NCBI GenBank assembly: GCA_046536775.1
Contig: JAWDMD010000005.1
Coordinates: forward strand, 1-24,389
Origin: Candidatus Nanopusillus sp.
GTDB lineage: Archaea > Nanobdellota > Nanobdellia > Nanobdellales > Nanobdellaceae
DNA: 24,389 nt
Direction: 5' to 3'
Positions within the stretch are counted from its first letter, which is position 1. Each line of letters begins with the position of its first letter. The notes under the pieces are model-generated. The model was given only the letters and a program-made list of their open reading frames with translations. It made no database searches and had not been told where the DNA came from. Shown here piece by piece: positions 198 through 22,431 of this stretch. The position numbers and the translations under genes were made by a program.

Positions 198-551
198 TTG
201 GAAGATTTAGATACAGCAAAGGTATTATTAAATAACAATAAATATTATGCTTCTACATTTTATTCATATCAAGCAGCAGAAAAAGCTTTGGAAGCTTTAC
301 TATTATATTTTGGAAAAGATGTAAAAACACATGATTTAAGTAAAATGCTAGATATAATTAAAGAAGAAGTAAATTTAAATGTTGAAGAAATAAGAAAAGA
401 AGCTTTAAAATTAAATCCAAATTATACAATTTCTAGATGTCCAGATGCGGCAAATAGTTTACCATATTTATTATATGATAAAAATGATGCAGAAGAATAT
501 TTAAAGATGATTGAAAAGATTATTAACTGGGTTAAGAAATTTATTAAATGA
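198..551 (+). CDS. HEPN domain protein (COG2250/PF05168-like), toxin-type partner of the downstream MNT
   Basis: All-helical 117-aa protein. It has the typical WLEQSLEDLDTAKVLL...YYASTFYSYQAAEKALEALL opening helices, KTHDLSKML and a late SRCPD element (usually [AS]RYP). Its stop overlaps the MNT start as ATGA (548-551). The listed start is TTG at 198. The frame is open back to 141 with no ATG/GTG/TTG, and the upstream residues (LSENVELWLEQS) look like part of helix 1, so the true start is uncertain. Confidence 0.8.
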   Translation: MEDLDTAKVLLNNNKYYASTFYSYQAAEKALEALLLYFGKDVKTHDLSKMLDIIKEEVNLNVEEIRKEALKLNPNYTISRCPDAANSLPYLLYDKNDAEEYLKMIEKIINWVKKFIK

Positions 552-838
552 AAGCAAAATCTGCTATTGAAAGTCAAAAAGAATTATTAAAGAAAGCAAT
601 AGAAATAATAAATAATATAAAAAAGGAAATTAATATAATTTATGTTTATGTTGTAGGTTCTAGAGCTAGAGGAGATTATCTAGACACAAGTGATTTAGAT
701 TTAGTAATAATATCTGATGATTTTAAGAATTTGAGATATATAGAAAGGTTAGAAAAATTATATAAATATTCTAAAGGAGATATTGATTTTTTGCGTTTAC
801 AAAAGAAGAATGAGATAATCCAAAAAGTTTATTTATAA
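548..838 (+). CDS. Minimal nucleotidyltransferase (MNT, Pol-beta superfamily), antitoxin-type partner of HEPN
   Basis: VYVVGSRARGDYLDTSDLDLVIISDDF matches the G-S-x(2)-R-G-x(n)-SD-x-D-L signature of PF01909 nucleotidyltransferases. The protein is 96 aa and is translationally coupled to the HEPN gene. Confidence 0.85.
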   Translation: MKAKSAIESQKELLKKAIEIINNIKKEINIIYVYVVGSRARGDYLDTSDLDLVIISDDFKNLRYIERLEKLYKYSKGDIDFLRLQKKNEIIQKVYL

Positions 839-8224: not shown

Positions 8225-8860
8225 TTACCTAAATATATCTAACACACTGTTTATATTGCTTTTTGATTCTTCCAATTTTTCTTTTAATCCTCTTATGCTG
8301 TCTAATCTCTTGTTTTCATCTTCCTTTAATTCAGTAATTATCCTTTCTACCTCAGACATCTTTTCCTTTAATTGTTGTAATAACTCTCTAACCCTCTTAT
8401 AATCCTCTATCTTTATTAACAATTCTTTTCTTACTTCTAATGGTTTTTCTTCTTTTAAATATTGTTTATGAACCTTTTCTTTAAGTTTTTCCTTCAATAG
8501 AGGTTTAGTTTCTTGTAATTGTGATTGTTGTTGAGCAAATCCTTGATTTCCAAATGTTGGTTGTTGGTTAGTAATACCTTGGACTGCGCCAAAATTGGTT
8601 TGTTGGCCTATACCTGTGGGTTGTTGAGCAAATCCTTGATTTCCAAATGTTGGTTGTTGGTTTTGATTTCCAAATCCTCCAAAACTACCCGGGTTGGTGT
8701 TATAATCATAAAGATTCTGGCCAGTTCCAGACATACCGTAATTATTACCCATATCTGTTGACATACCGCCTACACCCCCGAGTTGGTTTTTTAAATTATC
8801 TAGATCTCCATAAAAATCTTCTTCATTTTTCTTCTTATTCTTAAATAAACCCAGTGCCAT
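8225..8860 (-). CDS. Hypothetical protein: short basic N-terminus + ~90-aa G/Q/N/F-rich low-complexity region + C-terminal coiled coil
   Basis: The 211-aa protein has three parts. The N-terminus is MALGLFKNKKK. An almost uncharged region follows, with SFGGFG, TFG, NFG, TFG and two copies of NQQPTFGNQGFAQQ. The C-terminal ~95 aa are K/E-rich and helical. Confidence 0.6.
   Translation of the reverse strand: MALGLFKNKKKNEEDFYGDLDNLKNQLGGVGGMSTDMGNNYGMSGTGQNLYDYNTNPGSFGGFGNQNQQPTFGNQGFAQQPTGIGQQTNFGAVQGITNQQPTFGNQGFAQQQSQLQETKPLLKEKLKEKVHKQYLKEEKPLEVRKELLIKIEDYKRVRELLQQLKEKMSEVERIITELKEDENKRLDSIRGLKEKLEESKSNINSVLDIFR
8528..8662. repeat. Perfect 42-bp direct repeat, two copies 93 bp apart, inside the low-complexity CDS
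   Basis: 8528-8569 is identical to 8621-8662 (TTGTTGAGCAAATCCTTGATTTCCAAATGTTGGTTGTTGGTT on the + strand). The 93-bp offset equals 31 codons, and each copy encodes NQQPTFGNQGFAQQ. Confidence 0.9.
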
Positions 8861-8896: not shown

Positions 8897-11710
8897 TTAT
8901 TCGAAAAATACAATGGCTGGTTTATATGGCATTGCCCTATTTTTCTTAGATTCTTTTGATTCTTCCTCATATTCTATAATTATATCTTTAACATTTAATT
9001 CAGATTTAAATAAATCCTTAGCAGAATTTAATAGTTCATATTCTTTTTCTCTATCTAAAAATTCATCAAGTATATACATATTTCTCTTTACAAACAACAA
9101 TATGTCCTTATAATTTTGATAATTTTTTAAAAATTCATCAATCTTGTCTCTATTATTTTTTAATTCATTAAATAATTCATATTTTTCTTTACTTGCAATT
9201 ATTATTTTTATTTTATCAAATTTTTTATTATTCGTTAATATTTTTAACTTTATTAAATCATCCCTTATAGATTTCACATATTTTTCATGTTTTTCATATT
9301 CATCTGTATAAACTAAATTTTCTGGATATCTTATATTAAATGGATCTAAACCAATTTTTTCAAATATTTCAGAAATAATGTGAGGAACTATTGGATATAA
9401 AAATATTGCCTTATATTCAATATATTTATTTATAACTTCCCCATTTGTCCTACCAGAAGATCTCTTTAAATACCATTCAAAAGAATTATCCAATTCAAAT
9501 ATATTATTAACAACATTCATATAATTTAATTTCTCGTATTCATTTTCAATTTCTTCTGCCAATTTATTTAACTTATTTTCAAACCATAGATCAATATAAC
9601 TTTTTTCATATTTCTGATATTTATTGTAATTTTCTATTGAATAATTATAAAATGATATTAAATATTTTATTACAAATTCTGATTTATCTAAATCTATTTT
9701 TGCATCATCATAAGATGAATTTGCCGACATTGAAATAATAAATCTCAATATATCTGCAGAATATTTTCTTAAAGCATCTCTTATTGATATGTAATTTCCC
9801 AAAGATTTAGACATTTTTCTTCCCAATGCATCTACAGCATATCCATTTATGGCAATACCTCTTGGCCAATATTTTTTATCAAATATTGCAACATGATGAA
9901 ATATAAAGAATGATAGATGATTTGGAATTAAATCTTTTCCAGAGCTTCTTAAATCAACTGGATACCAATATTCAAATTCCTCCTTCATCTTTTTTGCAAT
10001 ATCCCCATATTTTCTTATTATCTCCTCTTCATTTCCTTTATTCAAAAATATATAATCAAATAGATCGTCTTCAATTTTATTTGGATCTATGTTTTTTATT
10101 AAGTGAGCAATTGTGTAAAATGCCATATATATTGTAGAATCTGATAATGATTCTATAACCCAGGATTTATCCCAAGGTAAAGGCGTTCCCAATTCATCCT
10201 TATTATGCGCACATGCCCAATCTTTTAGCCAACCAATCTTCTGATAAAAATCTTGTTTTGCATAATCTGGATAAAAGTTCATATTTTCTACACATTCATA
10301 AGCAAGTTTTTTCCATTCAGGATCTGAATATTTTAAGAACCATTGATTATCTATAATTTTTACAATACACAAATTGCCATATCTAGATTCGAATCTTGGT
10401 TTTAATGTATAATGTACTTTTGCTATGTTGTTTTCTATAAAATCTTTGACTATATTATCTTTTGCTTCATATATCTTCATACCACTATATTTTCCAAAAA
10501 CATCTGTTAATATCCCATTATAATATTCTAGAGAATATATTTCTTTTGTTGCATCTTCTAATTTTTGTATATCTTTCTGATTATCTATTTTTATTTTTTC
10601 AACAATCTCTTTTGCTGGTATATTATATCTGGGAACATTAAATAAAACTTTCATATTATCTAAACATTTCTTAGCTATTTCTTTATATTCTGTATCTAAT
10701 AAATCTTTTAATCCAATATAATCATATGGGGCATGAGAGGGAACGCTCATAACAATACCACTTCCAGTCTTTATATCTACAAATTCTGCAGGTAATATTG
10801 GTACTTCTTCATTTGTTAATGGATTTATACATATTTTTTCAATTAGTTCTTTAACATTAATGTCTTTGTTTTTTTCTAATCTATATCCTTGTGCATTAAA
10901 TTCTTCAACAATTATTGTATCTGGTAATATATACTTATTACCACTCTCTTTATCTATATATACTGAATATTTTCCATTTGGATTTATCCATATGTTAGTT
11001 ACTCCATATAATGTTTCTGGCCTTAATGTAAATGCTGGTAATATTATATCTTCATCTTTTAATCTAAACAAGATTATATAACCCTCTGTGGGACCTATTC
11101 CAGCATATTCATCTGACCTATCATGATCACCAACAGATATATTTGCAACTGGATCATATACTACTGGATGCTCTCCAGTAATAACCAAACCCTTTTCTTT
11201 TAATTTTCTATATTGCCATTCTATAAATTTATTATACCATGGATGTAAATATGTCGTATAAAATTTCCTTCTCCAATCTATCGAACATCCCAAATTTTTT
11301 ATATCTTCTTCAGCCTTTTCTACAAAATATAAAGCCCATCCTGCAGGATCTTTTAATTTTTCTATATCCTCATCAGAAATTCCTTCATCTTTTAATTCCC
11401 CTATAAGTTTTTTATCTCCATTTCTTAATTTCCATGATTTTGCAACAATTGGAGATCCTGTTAGATGAAAACCTTGGGGAAATAGTACATTATAACCCTT
11501 TAATCTTTTATATCTAGCAATAATATCTACTCTAGATAAAGATAAAGCAGTACCAATATGAAGAAATCCGCTTACATATGGATATGGAAATGTAACGAAA
11601 AATTTTGGTTTTTCTTTATTAGGATTTGAATAATATACTTGTTTCTCATCCCATATGTTTTGCCATTTTTTCTCTATCTCTTTAAAGAATTCTATATTAT
11701 TTTCATTCAT
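8897..11710 (-). CDS. leuS: Leucyl-tRNA synthetase, archaeal type
   Basis: The 937-aa protein is collinear by eye with archaeal LeuRS. Shared blocks include TLRPETLYGVTN, GTPLPWDKSWVIESLSDSTIYMAFYTI, EFEYWYPVDLRSSGKDLIPNHLSFFIFHHVAIF, RKMSKSLGN (KMSKS) and the C-terminal AMPYKPAIVFFE. The HIGH position reads LHIGTA. Confidence 0.95.
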   Translation of the reverse strand: MNENNIEFFKEIEKKWQNIWDEKQVYYSNPNKEKPKFFVTFPYPYVSGFLHIGTALSLSRVDIIARYKRLKGYNVLFPQGFHLTGSPIVAKSWKLRNGDKKLIGELKDEGISDEDIEKLKDPAGWALYFVEKAEEDIKNLGCSIDWRRKFYTTYLHPWYNKFIEWQYRKLKEKGLVITGEHPVVYDPVANISVGDHDRSDEYAGIGPTEGYIILFRLKDEDIILPAFTLRPETLYGVTNIWINPNGKYSVYIDKESGNKYILPDTIIVEEFNAQGYRLEKNKDINVKELIEKICINPLTNEEVPILPAEFVDIKTGSGIVMSVPSHAPYDYIGLKDLLDTEYKEIAKKCLDNMKVLFNVPRYNIPAKEIVEKIKIDNQKDIQKLEDATKEIYSLEYYNGILTDVFGKYSGMKIYEAKDNIVKDFIENNIAKVHYTLKPRFESRYGNLCIVKIIDNQWFLKYSDPEWKKLAYECVENMNFYPDYAKQDFYQKIGWLKDWACAHNKDELGTPLPWDKSWVIESLSDSTIYMAFYTIAHLIKNIDPNKIEDDLFDYIFLNKGNEEEIIRKYGDIAKKMKEEFEYWYPVDLRSSGKDLIPNHLSFFIFHHVAIFDKKYWPRGIAINGYAVDALGRKMSKSLGNYISIRDALRKYSADILRFIISMSANSSYDDAKIDLDKSEFVIKYLISFYNYSIENYNKYQKYEKSYIDLWFENKLNKLAEEIENEYEKLNYMNVVNNIFELDNSFEWYLKRSSGRTNGEVINKYIEYKAIFLYPIVPHIISEIFEKIGLDPFNIRYPENLVYTDEYEKHEKYVKSIRDDLIKLKILTNNKKFDKIKIIIASKEKYELFNELKNNRDKIDEFLKNYQNYKDILLFVKRNMYILDEFLDREKEYELLNSAKDLFKSELNVKDIIIEYEEESKESKKNRAMPYKPAIVFFE

Positions 11711-16585: not shown

Positions 16586-17503
16586 ATGTATGACCCATTT
16601 TATTTAGATTATTATTCGATAATTAAAAAATATGAAAATCTTGAAGAATTAGATTATAAAAAAATATTAATATCTGGAATGGGGGGATCTGGAATTTCTG
16701 GGGATTATACAAAACAAATATTGAATGATAAAGAAATAGTTGTTTGTAAAGATTACTTTTTACCAAAATTTATTGATAAAGATTGGTTAACTATATTTAT
16801 CTCATATTCTGGAGATACTGAAGAAACATTAAATTGCATGGATGAAGCAATAAATAATGAAAATAAAATTGTAGCGATTTCTTCTGGAGGAGAAATGGAA
16901 AAAATAGCTAAAGAAAAAAATTTATATTATATAAAAATTGATAATAACTATCCAACAACAAGATATACATTTCCAGTGATTTTAGGAATAATTTTGTCAA
17001 TGTTAGATAAGAAAAAGTATTATGAACTATTAGAAATGTTAGAAAATTATAGGAAAAGGTTAAAAGATTTGTCAATATTTGTGAATGACATAAAAAACCC
17101 AATAATGATTTATACCGATGTAAAACATGAACCTGTTGCTCTAGCATTAAAGATGCATTTAAATGAAGATACAAAATGGTTCTCTGAATATGGAATAATT
17201 TCAGAATATAATCATCATGATTTAGAAGGTATATCAAAATTAGATATAGATTTTATTTTATTGAAATTTAATTATTATGAAAGAATTGAATATAGGATAA
17301 ATTATATGAAAGATTTACTGGAAATGTATGGAAACAATGTTCTTTTATTTGATTTAAAATATAGAAATTTAATGGAAGAATTAGTTTTGGGTACATTATC
17401 ATTAAGAACTTTTACATTGAAATTAGCAGAAAAGAACAATGTAGATCCTTACCATAGTAAAAATATTGCTGGATTAAAGGCATTTTTAAAGAATATTAAA
17501 TAG
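16586..17503 (+). CDS. Bifunctional phosphoglucose/phosphomannose isomerase (archaeal SIS-domain PGI/PMI)
   Basis: 305 aa. ILISGMGGSGISGDY is the SIS P-loop-like motif, followed by FISYSGDTEETL. The later EYNHHDLEG region matches the conserved H-x-E catalytic segment of the PGI/PMI family. Confidence 0.8.
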   Translation: MYDPFYLDYYSIIKKYENLEELDYKKILISGMGGSGISGDYTKQILNDKEIVVCKDYFLPKFIDKDWLTIFISYSGDTEETLNCMDEAINNENKIVAISSGGEMEKIAKEKNLYYIKIDNNYPTTRYTFPVILGIILSMLDKKKYYELLEMLENYRKRLKDLSIFVNDIKNPIMIYTDVKHEPVALALKMHLNEDTKWFSEYGIISEYNHHDLEGISKLDIDFILLKFNYYERIEYRINYMKDLLEMYGNNVLLFDLKYRNLMEELVLGTLSLRTFTLKLAEKNNVDPYHSKNIAGLKAFLKNIK

Positions 17504-17564
17504 GATTTTATTTCTGATTTTGTTTGATGATAATTTTTTTAACTTATAAATCAATATTTAGTTT

Positions 17565-18128
17565 ATGGAATGGTATAATAAAGATGAAATGAAAAAGTTC
17601 ATAAATAGAAAGAGCTCTGTTCTTGTAGTATGGGATGTACAAGAAGCTCTAGTTAGCTCTATATTTAATAAAGATGAATTTCTTGCCAAACTTAAAGAAT
17701 TAATTGACTCTGCCAGGCAATACAATATCCCAATAGTTTATACTAAGATAACACCCCTACCCGATAGGTTTCAGCCTCCATACTTAAAGAGGAAGTTTGA
17801 TCTAGGTGACATAGTTAAAGAAGTATATCCTAAAGAGAATGATATAATACTGAATAAGAACACTGCTTCTATATTTGTAGGAACCAATTTCGAGCTCATG
17901 TTAAGAAATGCTGGGATAAATGTCATTGTTTTCACAGGAATCGCTACAGATATTGGTGTAGAAACATCGGCTAGACATGCCCAGGCTTTAGGATTCTTAC
18001 CAGTAATAGCTAGAAAAGCCGTATCTTCATCAGACAAACAAGCTCATGAAAGATCTTTAGCCAATATGAGTAAATTAATGCTAGTTCTAGACAATAAAGA
18101 AATAATAGAAAGATGGAGTTCTGAATAA
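17565..18128 (+). CDS. Isochorismatase-family hydrolase, Cys-less (Asp-Lys-Gly) subtype
   Basis: VLVVWDVQ carries the catalytic Asp and [45 protein letters not shown] carries the Lys. The usual T-x-x-C-V nucleophile position reads TDIGV. G+C is much higher than in the flanking genome (27/60 in the line starting at 17941). Confidence 0.85.
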
Positions 18129-18282
18129 TTAAATTTTTAAATCATTTCAAACTTTACTAAGGATAATATGCAGTATTTAATTAGCGAACTATTTATAAAC
18201 ACTATTCTCATATAGGTAAAAATAGAAAAGATAATTTGACAATTATAAAAAACTTAAATATAATAAAAATGTTAATAAAAAC

Positions 18283-18870
18283 ATGAAAATAGAAATAGAT
18301 GGTAAGTTAATAAACATAATAGAAGGATCAAATGAAAGAGTTAGGGATTATATAGATTTTATGAATAGACTCGCCCAAGATCCTGACAATTATACATTAA
18401 GTAGATATAGTAAAATCGATGAACAAAGGATGATTGAATGGTCTAAATCTTGGGGAAAAAATACTATTATGATATTAGCATACAATGATTCCAGAGTAGT
18501 GGGCTCTTTTCAAGCATCACTCGGTAAATATTATGGTCTTGAGAGACAATTTCATGTTGCAGACATAGCCTATGCAGTAGACAAAGAATTTAGAGGTAAG
18601 GGATTAATATATTTTCTCTTTAATGAAGCAATAAAGAGACTTGAAGGTGTGAAAATACTTACTGCCTGGGTAGATGAAAGGAACTTAAGGTCTAGTAAAC
18701 TTCTAATAAAGCTGGGATTTGAAGAAGCTTGTAAAATTAATGATTTCATTTATTCTCAGACAGAGAAAATCTTCTGTAATTTAATAATGTATGTAGGAAA
18801 TATAGGGATAGTCAAGGCTAAATTAAAAGAAGAACTGGCAAAGAAAAATTATAGCCTATATGAAGAATAA
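18283..18870 (+). CDS. GNAT family N-acetyltransferase
   Basis: VADIAYAVDKEFRGKGLIYFLFNEAIKRLE contains motif A (beta4-R-G-x-G-alpha3). ERNLRSSKLLIKLGFEE is motif B. The protein is 195 aa. A TATA-like TTAAATATAA at 18254-18263 lies about 25 nt before the ATG. Confidence 0.8.
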   Translation: MKIEIDGKLINIIEGSNERVRDYIDFMNRLAQDPDNYTLSRYSKIDEQRMIEWSKSWGKNTIMILAYNDSRVVGSFQASLGKYYGLERQFHVADIAYAVDKEFRGKGLIYFLFNEAIKRLEGVKILTAWVDERNLRSSKLLIKLGFEEACKINDFIYSQTEKIFCNLIMYVGNIGIVKAKLKEELAKKNYSLYEE

Positions 18871-19045
18871 TCTATAATAGATTAAATTAGAATTAAAATA
18901 TTTTAAGAAATTTTTACCTTTGTTAATAAAAGTTTTTCAAAAAAGTATTGCTCTCATCCTTTTTAACTCAAAATTTCCAAGCATAAAATAGTCTCTTATA
19001 TGTTTTAAAATTTAAGGAATAGTGAAATTAAAAATCTAATTTTTC

Positions 19046-19930
19046 TTAAGAGCTAATATATTTCCATGATAGGATTATACCAATTCCAGATAGAGCTATA
19101 GCAAACACAGAGAGATATATAAAATCTATTGCTAGGTTTGTTTGTATACCAAGTAGCATTCCCCTTATTACTGCATTTGAATAAGTTAATGGATTTATCT
19201 CAGCAATTGGTTTTAACCAGGAAGGCATTGAATTTATGGGATAAAATGCATTACTGGTAAATAGTAATGGCAGATTAAGTAAGTTCATAACCGCCATTTG
19301 AGATTCCCATGAGCTTGCCCTAATGGCTATTACCAAGAATAGAGAAGAAAGTCCAAAGGACATTAGGAATAAAGCGGCATAAGCTCCAAGAAAGTCAAAG
19401 ATATTTATCCCTGGATAAAAAGACATCCCTAACAATACTGCTACAACTAATACAATAGTAGCTTGTACTAATGATCTAATCATTGAAGACAACACTTTGC
19501 TTATGATTATGTTACCCCTTGATATTGGAGTCGTTAAAAGTCTATCCAATACTCCCAACCTTCTATCCCATACTATTGACATACCACTTTGCATTGAAGT
19601 AAATAATACTATAAATGATAACATTCCTGCAGCTAGGTAAGAAAAGTAATCTGTTGTACCAAAGGTTTGTTTCAATATTTCCTGTCCGATCTGGTCAATT
19701 ATACTTTTAGGTATATTCAACCCAGGTATTGAAAGAGCTGTACCAGAGAAAAGACTCTGTAAACTCATAGCCTTCCCAAATAGTGCTATCCAGAAGATTG
19801 GTTGTATAATAGATAAAAGAAGAATTACTGGAGCCTTATACCACTTCTTTAATTCTCTGTTTGTTAAAGTCCATAAACCATGAAAAGGAGACCTATCTAC
19901 TTCCTCTCTCTTTTGTATTTCTTCAACCAT
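19046..19930 (-). CDS. ABC-2 type transporter permease (DrrB-like)
   Basis: 294 aa with about six TM helices. It sits 2 nt downstream of the ATPase gene. The N-terminal WTLTNRELKKWYKAP and late INPLTY motifs are typical of ABC-2 permeases. Confidence 0.85.
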   Translation of the reverse strand: MVEEIQKREEVDRSPFHGLWTLTNRELKKWYKAPVILLLSIIQPIFWIALFGKAMSLQSLFSGTALSIPGLNIPKSIIDQIGQEILKQTFGTTDYFSYLAAGMLSFIVLFTSMQSGMSIVWDRRLGVLDRLLTTPISRGNIIISKVLSSMIRSLVQATIVLVVAVLLGMSFYPGINIFDFLGAYAALFLMSFGLSSLFLVIAIRASSWESQMAVMNLLNLPLLFTSNAFYPINSMPSWLKPIAEINPLTYSNAVIRGMLLGIQTNLAIDFIYLSVFAIALSGIGIILSWKYISS

Positions 19931-19932
19931 GT

Positions 19933-20928
19933 TTATCCCCTAGCTCTTCTTAGAGTTCTTCTCATTGCAAATGCCTCCCTTGAATCACTCTCCTCATCTC
20001 TCATTTTTCTACCCGTGTACTCCATATAGACCTCATCCATTGTAGGCTCTGTTATTGACATTCTAGATACTTTAACTCCATTCTTTATTAATCTTTCAAG
20101 AATTTGCGGGGCCATCTCTTCTCCGTTCTTCACTTTTATCCTTAGCATATTATCGACTTTCTTTATATCTAATATACCATCAAGATTTTGTAATAATTTC
20201 ATAGCTTCCTCATCACTCGTAGTACTTAGAGTAACTACATCACCACCTATACTTTCCTTTAGCTCTTTAGGTGATCCTATAGCAAGTATCTTACCATGGT
20301 CAATAATAGCTATTCTATCAGCGTAAAGGTCAGCTTCCTCTAAGTAGTGGGTGGTAACAAAAATGGTCATACCATACTCCTTCTTAAGCTTCATAATGTA
20401 GTTCCAAATTGCACTTCTAGTCTGAGCATCTAGACCTATGGTAGGTTCATCTAAGAACAGAACTTTGGGTCTACTAATCAAAGACATCGCTATTTCCAAC
20501 CTTCTCCTCATTCCTCCACTATATGTTTGTACTTTTCTGTTCATTGCCTGGGTTAATTCAACCATATCGAGTAATTCCTTAGCTCTTTCTTTAGCTAAAT
20601 CCTTTCTTATACCATAAAGCCCAGCCATCAACATCACATTCTCCCAACCTGTCAAGTCTTCATCAGCAGTGAATTCTTGAGGTACTACTCCAATAGAGCT
20701 CCTTACTTTTGCTGGATCTTTAATTATATCATATCCATTAACTATAGCAGTTCCTTCTGTAGGCTTCAATACTGTAGTTAGCATTTTTATAGTAGTTGAT
20801 TTTCCTGCCCCATTAGGTCCTAGGAAACCAAATATTTCTCCTTCTTTAACTTCAAAATTTATATGGTCGACTGCTATAAACTTACCAAAAGCTTTAGTAA
20901 GGTTTATTGCCTTTATTGCCTCAACCAC
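19933..20928 (-). CDS. ABC transporter ATP-binding protein (DrrA/ABC-2 exporter subfamily)
   Basis: Walker A is GPNGAGKST, the Q-loop is VPQE, the signature is YSGGMRRRL, Walker B is VLFLDEPTIGLD and the H-loop is TTHYLEEA. A C-terminal ~100-aa DrrA-type domain is present. The start is GTG at 20928, and the next upstream in-frame codon but one is a stop. Confidence 0.95.
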   Translation of the reverse strand: MVEAIKAINLTKAFGKFIAVDHINFEVKEGEIFGFLGPNGAGKSTTIKMLTTVLKPTEGTAIVNGYDIIKDPAKVRSSIGVVPQEFTADEDLTGWENVMLMAGLYGIRKDLAKERAKELLDMVELTQAMNRKVQTYSGGMRRRLEIAMSLISRPKVLFLDEPTIGLDAQTRSAIWNYIMKLKKEYGMTIFVTTHYLEEADLYADRIAIIDHGKILAIGSPKELKESIGGDVVTLSTTSDEEAMKLLQNLDGILDIKKVDNMLRIKVKNGEEMAPQILERLIKNGVKVSRMSITEPTMDEVYMEYTGRKMRDEESDSREAFAMRRTLRRARG

Positions 20929-21238
20929 TTTTTATTATATCTCGGATTTTCCTTAATGCCTTTTCTTTCTCACTTTCAAGATATAAGATTATATTACTCT
21001 CTAGAGATGTAGAAAAAGAAAATATGGTGTATTTATCAAAGATCTTGATTGCATTTACGTATTTAAGTATATATAATGTTGGTTTTACTTTGAATAATAC
21101 ATAGTTTTGAATGTTTCCCTTGAAGAAATTGATTATACTCATATTATTAGATACTCTCTTGTAATAATTAACCACTTGATCATAATAGTAATTAAGAGCA
21201 TGAACTGAGTCTGATCCTTTTTCCATTCTATACTGCAT
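20921..21238 (-). CDS. Hypothetical small protein, translationally coupled to the ABC ATPase
   Basis: 105 aa, starting at ATG 21238. Its TGA overlaps the ATPase GTG start by 8 nt. G+C is intermediate (18-20 of 60 in sampled lines). No motif was recognised; a divergent wHTH regulator is possible but unsupported. Confidence 0.4.
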   Translation of the reverse strand: MQYRMEKGSDSVHALNYYYDQVVNYYKRVSNNMSIINFFKGNIQNYVLFKVKPTLYILKYVNAIKIFDKYTIFSFSTSLESNIILYLESEKEKALRKIRDIIKSG

Positions 21239-21600
21239 AGCTATATTTATCTTTTGATAACTATAAAAAGATTTCTATAAAAGAGTGATTTACCCATTTA
21301 ATTTAGTTATTATCCTAAAGAATGCAATATATTATTAAACAAAATCGATACTTTTCCTATTTGGTAGCACATTATATATATGAACAAAAAGATAAAAATA
21401 ATTATATGAAAGAATATTAGAGAATATTAATAAAGTAATGGGCGAAGTATTAAAATCATTATTGTAAATAAAAGATTTAATTAAGAGGATATTTGAAATA
21501 CTAAATGCATATGATAATCTATCATTCAAAGATTTTAATGTTTCAATGAGAATAGATGCTCTATTAAAGTTTAAAAATCCTTTTTATATAGATTTCCATA

Positions 21601-22431
21601 ATGACTACTGAGTCAGAAGAAATACGCGAATTATTAAATTTTGAGTTAAGAATAGGAAAAATTAATGAAAAAGAGTTTAAACTTTTAGAAGAAATTATAA
21701 CTCGATATTATAAAGATTGTAAAAACAGAATAGAAAGTACATATCTTTTTGTCGGAGGATTGATTGATTTGATAACACTTGGATATAATAAAGAAGATAT
21801 ATCTACAATATTAAATGAAATTTTAAATTTAGGAACAAATGAAATCGATAAATTACTATTTAAAGTTTACATCCATATTTATGATAAATATGATGAAGAA
21901 TTTAAAAAATACTTTGAGAAAAAATTAGAATATATAAAAAAGATAGTTGAATCTTCCCCAAATATTGATGATATACTAGATAAATTAGATAAAATAAAAG
22001 TTTTTTCCAATAATAATGATAAAGAGTATACAGAAATAAGAAATTCGATAGAAGATATTAAAAAGTACAAACCATCATTGAACTATGTATATAATATAAT
22101 ACAAAATTGGCGGGATAGAAACTATATAGAAAAAATTAAAGATGCTGAAAGACAAATTTCTTGTACAGTAAAAAATTTAGAATATATAAAAAATAATCTA
22201 GAAAATATTGAGAAAGATCCAAAATATGCTAAGAACTTAAAGGATATATTGAATATAAAAAGAGAATTAGATAATTACTATGATGGATTATTAAAAATTT
22301 CAGAATTATTAAATACATATGAACAATCTTATATAAAATTCAAAGAAGAATATTTGTCAAAATTACTGCTTGAAGGTTTAGATTATATAAAAAAGTATAC
22401 AAATATTAATTCAAATAAAGAAAACATATAA
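21601..22431 (+). CDS. Hypothetical all-helical protein (276 aa)
   Basis: A long uninterrupted ORF with an in-frame TAG 12 nt upstream of the ATG. It is K/E/N/I-rich, predicted helical or coiled coil, and has no recognisable catalytic motif. It lies 56 nt upstream of the HExxH gene on the same strand. Confidence 0.5.
   Translation: MTTESEEIRELLNFELRIGKINEKEFKLLEEIITRYYKDCKNRIESTYLFVGGLIDLITLGYNKEDISTILNEILNLGTNEIDKLLFKVYIHIYDKYDEEFKKYFEKKLEYIKKIVESSPNIDDILDKLDKIKVFSNNNDKEYTEIRNSIEDIKKYKPSLNYVYNIIQNWRDRNYIEKIKDAERQISCTVKNLEYIKNNLENIEKDPKYAKNLKDILNIKRELDNYYDGLLKISELLNTYEQSYIKFKEEYLSKLLLEGLDYIKKYTNINSNKENI

Follow-up and report, generated by a model that had tools for sequence, protein, structure and literature searches.

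A stretch of 24,389 nucleotides from Candidatus Nanopusillus sp. (contig JAWDMD010000005.1 of assembly GCA_046536775.1; hereafter, the window) carries, immediately downstream of its native PGI/PMI gene, an island of four genes encoding an isochorismatase-like hydrolase (ISO), a GNAT N-acetyltransferase, and the permease (DrrB) and ATPase (DrrA) of a DrrAB-like ABC-2 pump. The island very probably goes back to a single ancestral capture, with a Stygiolobus-like lineage of Sulfolobaceae as the donor; it is now found clade-wide, is partly ameliorated, and has since been inherited vertically. The original prediction, made from the letters of the window, had proposed a probable horizontal acquisition, and this is borne out by the nesting of DrrA within Stygiolobus, by donor homology at the DNA level, and by the absence of the island from the corresponding site in outgroups.

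The source of the window is a nanoarchaeon of the Nanopusillus/Nanobsidianus clade. Its backbone genes, which include LeuRS, ribosomal protein S3Ae, TIM and PGI/PMI, are archaeal; in a scan of one genome per GTDB species, LeuRS is 93% identical to that of Candidatus Nanopusillus acidilobi 7A, 90-92% to those of Nanobsidianus stetteri and several Nanopusillus metagenome-assembled genomes (MAGs), and 60-65% to those of Nanoarchaeota YN1 and Nanobdella aerobiophila. The gene order LeuRS, S3Ae, methyltransferase, and onward to ThiS and PGI/PMI is kept in all of these relatives, YN1 and N. aerobiophila included.

Donor segments and gene content of the island

The island consists of two donor-homologous segments, one on each strand, with the following features (G+C at third codon positions is abbreviated GC3).

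16586-17503, plus strand: bifunctional PGI/PMI, native, left anchor of the island (Pfam and NCBIfam matches; G+C 0.231, GC3 0.157)
17517-18873, plus strand: donor segment A, comprising about 48 nt of donor 5' region, ISO, a 154-nt spacer and GNAT (blastn to donors)
17565-18128, plus strand: ISO, isochorismatase-like hydrolase, 187 amino acids, YecD-like (PF00857, E = 1e-35, 123.5 bits, residues 18-172)
18283-18870, plus strand: GNAT N-acetyltransferase, 195 amino acids, RimJ/RimL-like (PF00583 and PF13302, above cutoffs)
18874-19046, no strand: AT-rich spacer (18% G+C) joining the convergent 3' ends of the donor segments; no donor similarity
19047-20965, minus strand: donor segment B, comprising DrrB, DrrA and the last ~45 nt of donor PadR (blastn to donors)
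19046-19930, minus strand: ABC-2 permease, DrrB-like, 294 amino acids (PF01061, E = 1e-35, 123 bits)
19933-20928, minus strand: ABC ATPase, DrrA-like, 331 amino acids, GTG start (TIGR01188, 425 bits against a cutoff of 312; PF00005; PF13732, E = 8.5e-17)

For all four genes, the identities first proposed (isochorismatase-family hydrolase, GNAT, DrrA/DrrB-type ABC-2 pump) agree with the Pfam and NCBIfam matches. Look-ups by exact protein sequence returned a record for the GNAT of the window and none for its DrrA or ISO.

Segment A gives one unbroken blastn match of 1374-1377 bp, at 82.0-82.5% identity, that runs across ISO, the spacer and GNAT to Sulfolobaceae RB850M (L011, 9222-10591) and to Stygiolobus-like contigs from Yellowstone (YNP; L094, L095 and L096). 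Judged by this alignment, ISO, spacer and GNAT appear to have been captured as a single contiguous piece with its own donor 5' region, of which nanoarchaeal contig L008 retains about 30 nt more upstream of ISO than the window does. The named non-nanoarchaeal relatives closest to the ISO protein are those of Acidianus infernus (84%) and Stygiolobus caldivivus (82%). Its closest solved relative is Escherichia coli YecD (PDB 1j2r), with which it shares G-I-(A/S)-T-(D/N)-I-G-V-E and a glycine at the nucleophile position, although the significant alignment to YecD spans the C-terminal half only (E = 8e-14). Of the catalytic triad, D24 and K98 are conserved, but all nanoarchaeal and donor copies have G131 where the nucleophilic cysteine would stand; ISO thus has the isochorismatase fold domain and should not be classed as a cysteine hydrolase or nicotinamidase. 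In RB850M, the ISO sequence (L011, ~9270-9832) has a 2-nt insertion that shifts the frame near codon 27, and no gene is called there; the YNP Stygiolobus-like copy is intact.

GNAT is 84-85% identical at the amino acid level to the copies in RB850M and Sulfolobaceae MAGs, and the next Sulfolobaceae homologs stand at ~54%. The acetyl-CoA motif FRGKGLIY is present in 11 of 13 aligned copies, that of the window among the intact ones; RB850M has FRSKGLIY and L020 has FRGKRLIY. The gene has been lost in Nst1 and RHS.bin.5, and is truncated or frameshifted in N. acidilobi and RSNP5. Beyond GNAT, the AT-rich spacer falls within a continuous alignment to the N. acidilobi locus, and the join between the two donor segments is for that reason taken to be ancestral.

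Segment B matches two Stygiolobus sp. sequences (L001 and L002) over 1922 bp at 86.7% identity, YNP contig L006 at 86.3%, and S. caldivivus (L092) at 72%. DrrB is 90.5% identical to its Stygiolobus counterpart, and scores 144 bits against TIGR01247 (drrB), under the family cutoff of 223 bits. DrrA, whose gene is separated from that of DrrB by 2 nt, has Walker A, Walker B and H-loop motifs that are invariant in all aligned copies, and an ABC signature of SGGMRRR or SGGVRRR. Its amino acid identity drops with taxonomic distance from Stygiolobus: 94% to Stygiolobus sp. CP850M and other unclassified Stygiolobus, 86% to S. caldivivus, 71-82% to other Sulfolobaceae genera, and ~68% to Thermoproteales.

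The donor pump operon has the order PadR-DrrA-DrrB, with PadR overlapping the start of DrrA by 8 nt. This Stygiolobus/Sulfolobaceae gene order is preserved in the window, as is the 8-nt overlap onto the GTG start of DrrA; in the window, however, PadR is cut to its last ~45 nt, an IS200/IS605 insertion sequence (IS) remnant replaces the native upstream region, and DrrAB GC3 has fallen from 0.45 in the donor to 0.26-0.29. The pump shares its two-gene ABC-2 architecture with the daunorubicin/doxorubicin exporter DrrAB of Streptomyces peucetius, the prototype of TIGR01188 and TIGR01247, and its nucleotide-binding subunit carries the DrrA C-terminal domain and scores above the DrrA family cutoff. 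Unlike that prototype, it resides in an archaeon with no anthracycline context, and its permease remains below the family cutoff.

Donor lineage and direction of transfer

Neighbor-joining trees (300 bootstraps) were built for DrrA, ISO and GNAT. In the DrrA tree, the nanoarchaeal copies nest within Stygiolobus (99.7%), sister to a clade of CP850M and YNP sequences (86%) with which they exclusively share eight DrrA residues. In the ISO tree, the nanoarchaeal clade (92%) is sister to RB850M (94%), inside the Sulfolobaceae. The island genes have an ordinary composition in the donors (GC3 0.36-0.49). From the trees, the exclusive DrrA residues and this composition, we infer that the genes moved from Sulfolobaceae to a nanoarchaeon; and because GNAT moved within the contiguous ISO piece, it is assigned the same direction as ISO.

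Movement in the opposite direction, of nanoarchaeal genes into Sulfolobaceae, would be consistent with the confinement of this GNAT type to Stygiolobus-like Sulfolobaceae and nanoarchaea, and with the placement of Sulfolobaceae copies among the nanoarchaeal copies in the GNAT tree. We consider it extremely improbable nonetheless: DrrAB and ISO are spread broadly, and congruently with taxonomy, across Sulfolobaceae and Thermoproteota; the composition of the genes fits the donors and not the nanoarchaea; ISO and GNAT moved as one piece, spacer included; and the island is absent at the syntenic site in the nanoarchaeal outgroups.

Both blocks occur on a 51-kb contig from Crater Hills (YNP site 01; L094, scf1118683610546), where they lie 15.3 kb apart in divergent orientation (28400-47273); POR, NUDIX, Pirin and kinase genes are among those of the intervening donor DNA. 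In RB850M, ISO-GNAT is followed by an MFS transporter and a MarR regulator. The nanoarchaeal blocks are 173 bp apart and convergent, an arrangement that amounts to a circular permutation of the donor order. The Crater Hills population has been described as Stygiolobus-like, with 38% G+C (PMC3654217), and the donor lineage here has ~40% G+C. A literature search on the strain names CP850M and RB850M, and on PadR-DrrAB in Sulfolobus, returned nothing.

The suggestion that the donor could have been the host of the symbiont is in keeping with these results, as the donors are Stygiolobus-like Sulfolobaceae and Sulfolobales are documented or putative hosts of this nanoarchaeal clade (PMC3655853, PMC6142677). 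The known or inferred hosts of N. acidilobi (Acidilobus) and of Nst1 (Acd1, 52% G+C) do not belong to the donor lineage, however (PMC4935971, PMC3655853); a host donor would therefore be an ancestral or unrecognised partner, and the island suggests that such a Stygiolobus-like host existed for the clade.

Distribution, junctions and age

The arrangement PGI/PMI-ISO-GNAT-DrrB-DrrA is found in more than 10 independent assemblies across ENA, JGI and NCBI. Its carriers include the ENA/JGI metagenome contigs L003-L005 and L008-L010, Nanopusillus MAG L007 (98% identity to the window), MAG RSNS15, N. stetteri AB-777_F03, and N. acidilobi 7A, a cultured organism with a closed genome. The orthologs in the two named species (Nps_02540-02555 in N. 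acidilobi; Nst1_373, Nst1_372 and Nst1_371 in N. stetteri) lie in the same place, after glucose-6-phosphate isomerase, and are annotated as an 'amidase related to nicotinamidase', a GNAT, and the permease and ATPase of an 'ABC-type multidrug transport' system; the window copies differ from these in having undergone the least amelioration and in still carrying the IS/PadR remnant ORF. The copies are homologous to one another at the left junction, at the AT-rich join of the two blocks, and in the truncation that leaves PadR only its final ~45 nt. ISO and DrrAB have been lost in CON-C and RSNP5, and nothing is left at the locus in RSNS12, where PyrG follows PGI/PMI; simple deletions from an ancestor with all four genes account for this patchy gene content. 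PGI/PMI and its upstream synteny are found in all Nanopusillaceae loci, outgroups L021, L022 and L063 included, and the similarity of these outgroups to the window ends at 17496-17513. At the syntenic site itself, the island is absent in YN1, Nanobdella aerobiophila and Nanopusillaceae KM4331-08, all of which keep the synteny from LeuRS to PGI/PMI; this absence refers to the site only.

Co-sequencing of attached host and symbiont cells could, in principle, introduce host DNA into metagenome or single-cell assemblies, whether as a chimera or as contamination. The chance that the island arose in this way is negligible. It is present in a closed genome from culture and in at least 10 independent assemblies, which upholds the earlier contention that no single chimeric join could explain it; both junctions are spanned repeatedly; its GC3 is intermediate and fits neither partner; and it diverges by 12-18% at the nucleotide level from every donor.

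GC3 declines in a series from the donors (0.44-0.49; GNAT 0.36) through the window lineage (0.24-0.29) and other nanoarchaeal copies (0.15-0.25) to native nanoarchaeal genes (0.06-0.16). Amelioration was tested in DrrAB at 149 synonymous third positions that are G or C in both Stygiolobus sp. and S. caldivivus. Of these, 60 have changed from GC to AT in the window and 82 in N. acidilobi; 55 changes are shared, against 33 expected (odds ratio 25), such that ~90% of the GC-to-AT synonymous changes in the window copy are common to the N. acidilobi copy. A tree from transversions only recovers nanoarchaeal monophyly at 69%, and a modern Stygiolobus clade that excludes the window at 100%. Counts of informative sites in quartets are indecisive taken alone, confounded as they are by parallel GC-to-AT change. 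Synonymous divergence (dS) between window and donors is 0.67-0.73 for DrrAB, 1.15 for ISO and 0.41 for GNAT; between nanoarchaeal species, it is 0.25-0.47 for native genes.

These patterns bear directly on the age of the event, which the original prediction had called recent. A gain specific to this genome or strain would fit the limited amelioration of the window copies (DrrA GC3 0.29, vs 0.15-0.20 elsewhere) and their proximity to Stygiolobus (88% nucleotide identity, vs 82-84%), but it is very unlikely. Sister species share the island and its junctions, among them N. acidilobi 7A with its closed genome, N. stetteri, and many MAGs and contigs; only ~45 nt of PadR remain, with an identical 3' junction in every copy; 55 of the 60 synonymous GC-to-AT changes are common to N. 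acidilobi; and the DrrAB dS to donor exceeds the native divergence between species, within an overall range of 0.4-1.15 for the island genes. The check that the original prediction itself proposed, for the island in sister genomes, thus speaks against a recent origin: the island is present clade-wide, and absent at the site in YN1, Nanobdella and KM4331-08.

It is also conceivable that transfer recurred, with the window lineage exchanging its DrrAB (and perhaps GNAT) for a fresher Stygiolobus copy by homologous recombination at the resident ancestral island. DrrA branch lengths are uneven (~3% for the window, ~8% for its sisters), the bootstrap for nanoarchaeal monophyly is weak (60-69%), and the GNAT topology and low GNAT dS to donor fit such an exchange. 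We judge it quite unlikely, however, given that a fresh copy would lack the ~50 ameliorating changes that are identical to those of the sisters, that no donor-like patches of sequence are present, and that the modern Stygiolobus clade excludes the window copy with full bootstrap support; the slightly higher native GC3 of the window lineage would also predict slower amelioration. Patchy re-conversion by donor DNA was considered separately as a cause of the low amelioration in the window. The runs test speaks against it: the G/C sites retained in the window are interspersed and not clustered (z = -1.2).

Some observations nevertheless weigh against a single ancestral capture followed by vertical descent. 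Without compositional signal, nanoarchaeal monophyly is supported only moderately (60% from amino acids, 69% from transversions), and the four amino acid changes fixed in all nanoarchaeal DrrA copies are all AT-driven. The window has 5-8 private GC-to-AT changes, vs 27-38 in its sisters, which is not clock-like, and its slightly higher native GC3 explains the low amelioration in part only. The GNAT dS to donor (0.41) is far under that of ISO (1.15), and the GNAT tree, in which Sulfolobaceae copies fall among nanoarchaeal ones, is ambiguous when taken alone. The mismatch between the donor lineage and the known or inferred hosts Acidilobus and Acd1 counts in the same direction, as does the published N. 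acidilobi proteome, in which GNAT, DrrA and DrrB were not detected (Wurch 2016, Supplementary Data 1).

Composition and borders of the island

The compositional anomaly of the island is real and statistically solid. Against a whole-window mean of 24.6% G+C, the interval 17565-21238 stands at 32.1% and the remainder at 23.3%; the donor segments have 29.7% and 35.5%, and lines of 60 nt within them average 33.3%, compared with 23.4% elsewhere (Mann-Whitney p = 9e-17). The four island genes have G+C of 0.31-0.37 and GC3 of 0.235-0.289, and the 21 other ORFs in the window have G+C of 0.17-0.33 and a mean GC3 of 0.137 (SD 0.034; p = 0.0013 for GC3 against the island genes). The eight hand counts per 60 nt behind the original prediction were all exact (27, 23, 25, 18 and 20 inside the island; 12, 8 and 11 outside), and the shift in amino acid usage that it described is present, with a K/I/N/Y/E/F fraction of 0.31-0.46 in island proteins, compared with 0.44-0.60 in native proteins. 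Its contrast of ~40% against ~15-20% G+C captured a genuine and significant difference but overstated its size.

The sharp borders at 17565 and 21238 likewise require revision. DNA homology to donors places the left border at 17517, 7-14 nt past the PGI/PMI stop, and the right border at ~20965-20970 and not at 21238. Nor is the island one uniform block: its 154-nt and 173-nt intergenic spacers, at 17-18% G+C, match the AT-richness of the genome outside it, and the G+C profile falls to 23% at 18001-18450, between the first two island genes. The remaining G+C peaks of the window are two tRNAs and one native gene.

8225-8860, minus strand: G/Q/N-rich repeat protein with repeated 'QPTFGNQGFAQQ' units and a C-terminal coiled coil (G+C 0.325, GC3 0.236)

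This is the sole native gene in the window that matches the island in G+C. It was considered as a second transfer and rejected, as it is kept beside LeuRS in all Nanopusillaceae loci, including those of YN1 and Nanobdella. FG-like repeats such as it contains are unusual for an archaeon.

The small ORF and the IS200/IS605 remnant

Two further features lie upstream of the pump genes.

20921-21238, minus strand: chimeric ORF of 105 amino acids (G+C 26.7%), outside the donor operon, overlapping the start of DrrA by 8 nt
21239-21285, minus strand: IS200/IS605 left-end remnant, with a hairpin (TTATC-TTTT-GATAA) and a TATA-like TTTTTATAG centred ~26 nt before the ATG of the ORF

Residues 5-65 of the 105-amino-acid ORF are 44% identical (BLASTP, E = 5e-18) to the IS200/IS605 TnpA of Sulfolobus monocaudavirus SMV3. 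A 19-amino-acid deletion removes the first histidine of HFH (the HUH motif), the second histidine is a tyrosine, and there is no catalytic tyrosine region; in place of the C-terminal half of TnpA stand unrelated sequence and a PadR tail. The last 14 residues correspond to the C-terminus of PadR (10 of 14 identical in BLASTP to Stygiolobus PadR, C-terminus only), and the ORF has no Pfam match, PF03551 (the PadR winged helix) included. By these alignments, it is best described as a relic fusion of a dead TnpA remnant and a PadR tail. The original prediction had counted it as a fifth protein of the cassette and a small ORF coupled to the pump, and this cannot be maintained for a relic fusion that lies outside the donor operon. 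The ORF is found only in the window, L003 and L007; it is disrupted or deleted in L014, L016 and L008, and in RSNS15 (L012) just a portion of the IS remnant survives.

The left end itself (21239-21285) shares ~90% identity with RSNS15 and with the sequence preceding tnpA in SMV3, and may serve as a promoter for the ORF, DrrA and DrrB. Among virus and plasmid records, the sole match to the region joins 21107-21285 of the window to SMV3 (NC_029103, 61917-62089), a Yellowstone Sulfolobus virus that carries the tnpA together with its left end. The left-end motif was found in no other viral contig, no copy of this IS was found in the donor loci examined, and no carrier of the island was found in plasmid and virus databases, the IS remnant alone being matched. 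The SMV3 match hints that Sulfolobales mobile elements have reached nanoarchaeal genomes. The island is flanked by no meaningful direct or inverted repeats, and has no integrase and no tRNA at its border; the absence of direct repeats and integrase had been remarked upon already, and holds, yet a transposase remnant is present.

Selection, expression and predicted function

Ratios of nonsynonymous to synonymous divergence among nanoarchaeal copies are 0.06-0.085 for DrrA, 0.08-0.10 for DrrB, 0.05 for ISO and 0.18-0.22 for GNAT, with 0.04-0.12 for flanking native genes. These values point to purifying selection on the island genes. In N. acidilobi, the ISO ortholog Nps_02540 is among the proteins detected in the proteome of Wurch 2016 (Supplementary Data 1).

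The cassette most likely comprises a constitutive ABC-2 efflux pump and a hydrolase/acetyltransferase pair acting on a small molecule, an interpretation drawn from family membership and from donor context (PadR control of the pump; MFS and MarR neighbors of ISO-GNAT). In this case, DrrAB would be a now de-repressed exporter of hydrophobic or toxic small molecules, and ISO, which lacks the nucleophilic cysteine, would form with GNAT a linked pair that modifies small molecules. The same donor context makes it plausible that the island is, as first supposed, a detoxification or resistance cassette.

Some DrrABC systems are lipid exporters. The pump might, then, transport not toxins but lipids or metabolites of the host, at the site of contact, with the hydrolase acting as a nicotinamidase in NAD salvage. 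Nanoarchaea lack lipid and cofactor synthesis (PMC4935971), and the annotations of ISO in N. acidilobi and at JGI ('amidase related to nicotinamidase') are consistent with this alternative. We regard it as unlikely: nicotinamidases need a nucleophilic cysteine, which is replaced by glycine in all copies as it is in YecD, and PadR control in the donor, along with MFS and MarR neighbors, is typical of stress or efflux loci.

A model for the capture

Under the favored reading of a single ancestral capture, Stygiolobus-like DNA would have entered the ancestor of the Nanopusillus/Nanobsidianus clade and been inserted directly downstream of PGI/PMI, at some time between the divergence from Nanobdella and YN1 and the separation of the clade into species. 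As the symbiont is physically attached to its hosts, uptake of DNA from a host is plausible. The two pieces probably arrived in a single episode, since both lie 15.3 kb apart on one donor contig. All other donor DNA would then have been deleted and the PadR regulator lost, with a Sulfolobales-type IS200/IS605 remnant coming to abut the pump operon. Vertical inheritance under purifying selection would have followed, with synonymous sites drifting toward the AT-richness of the symbiont and with lineage-specific deletions of single genes. The window lineage would have drifted least, which would make the island conspicuous there.

A more specific scenario is possible but doubtful, in which the whole Yellowstone-type clade, N. 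acidilobi and N. stetteri included, traces back to an ancestor with a Stygiolobus-like host, and a single uptake of host chromosome, in the form of a fragment of at least 19 kb was rearranged and pared down to four genes. The contrast between blocks that are divergent and 15.3 kb apart in the donor and convergent and adjacent in the symbiont would, in that scenario, fit a circularised or rearranged intermediate and subsequent deletion.

Flanking loci

The site 3' of PGI/PMI is a synteny breakpoint, as seen in MAG RSNS12 (L013, 1-4230), where a convergent CTP synthase and a cysteine desulfurase follow PGI/PMI and there is no island. The right flank is variable between strains: from window position 22424 onward, strains that are 98% identical over the island abruptly differ to the right of the gene for a 276-amino-acid protein, and L003 (4779-5187) and L007 (7499-9737) have another gene in place of the 326-amino-acid ORF of the window (in L007, for a phosphodiesterase-family protein). 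The 276-amino-acid protein (21601-22431, plus strand) is rich in K, E and I. Its sub-threshold matches to phage minor capsid protein 2 (E = 3.6e-4) and SMC are probably coiled-coil noise, and its homologs in sister genomes are 55-58% identical, as would befit a fast-evolving gene.

At the left end of the window (198-838, plus strand), a HEPN and minimal-nucleotidyltransferase (MNT) pair is encoded by overlapping ORFs of native composition. A toxin-antitoxin-like MNT/HEPN pair also lies directly to the right of DrrA in sister loci (L008, 9696-10389; L016; L018; L020; N. acidilobi Nps_02560). This pair shares 47-59% identity with pairs from Sulfolobaceae, among them one in S. caldivivus located 4.6 kb upstream of PadR-DrrAB, and it is fully AT-ameliorated; it may represent an older or a co-transferred host gene.

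Implications for nanoarchaeal gene flow

Gene transfer between DPANN symbionts and their hosts is established, Nanoarchaeota and Crenarchaeota included (Dombrowski et al., 2020, PMC7414124), and the island is a well-supported new example of this known host-to-DPANN gene flow. As in transfers described for N. equitans and Ignicoccus, and in the sisterhoods of Nanoarchaeota with Crenarchaeota and of Nanohaloarchaeota with Halobacteria, genes of an ectosymbiont branch within a host phylum. It differs from these in affording a DNA-level view of donor genus, junctions, donor linkage and an amelioration series, and in having a donor distinct from the documented hosts of two clade members. Such gene flow is usually inferred from protein trees only, and according to the founding papers, these nanoarchaea had exchanged few or no genes with their hosts. 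Podar et al. (2013) found "no strong evidence of gene exchange" and listed three Nst1-Acd1 candidates (AroD and two uncharacterised proteins); Wurch et al. (2016) counted ABC genes in the minimal transporter set; and Jarett et al. (2018) reported four unannotated transfer candidates in another pairing, and their putative hosts included 'Sulfolobus type II'. We found no paper that identifies this island as derived from Sulfolobaceae, within an incomplete coverage of the literature.

The island thus presents a transfer event at nucleotide level, for which donor genus, both junctions, donor linkage, regulator loss, amelioration series and purifying selection can be described together. These minimal genomes have approximately five genes for ABC-transporter subunits, two of which are foreign, and segments of anomalous G+C in nanoarchaeal bins need not mean contamination. 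The donor lineage (Stygiolobus-like 'Sulfolobales type 2') is not the documented host of N. acidilobi or Nst1, which makes past host switching testable. If the clade did have an ancestral Stygiolobus-like host, the island would amount to a molecular fossil by which a host switch could be dated, and its amelioration would offer a 'clock series' over sister species.

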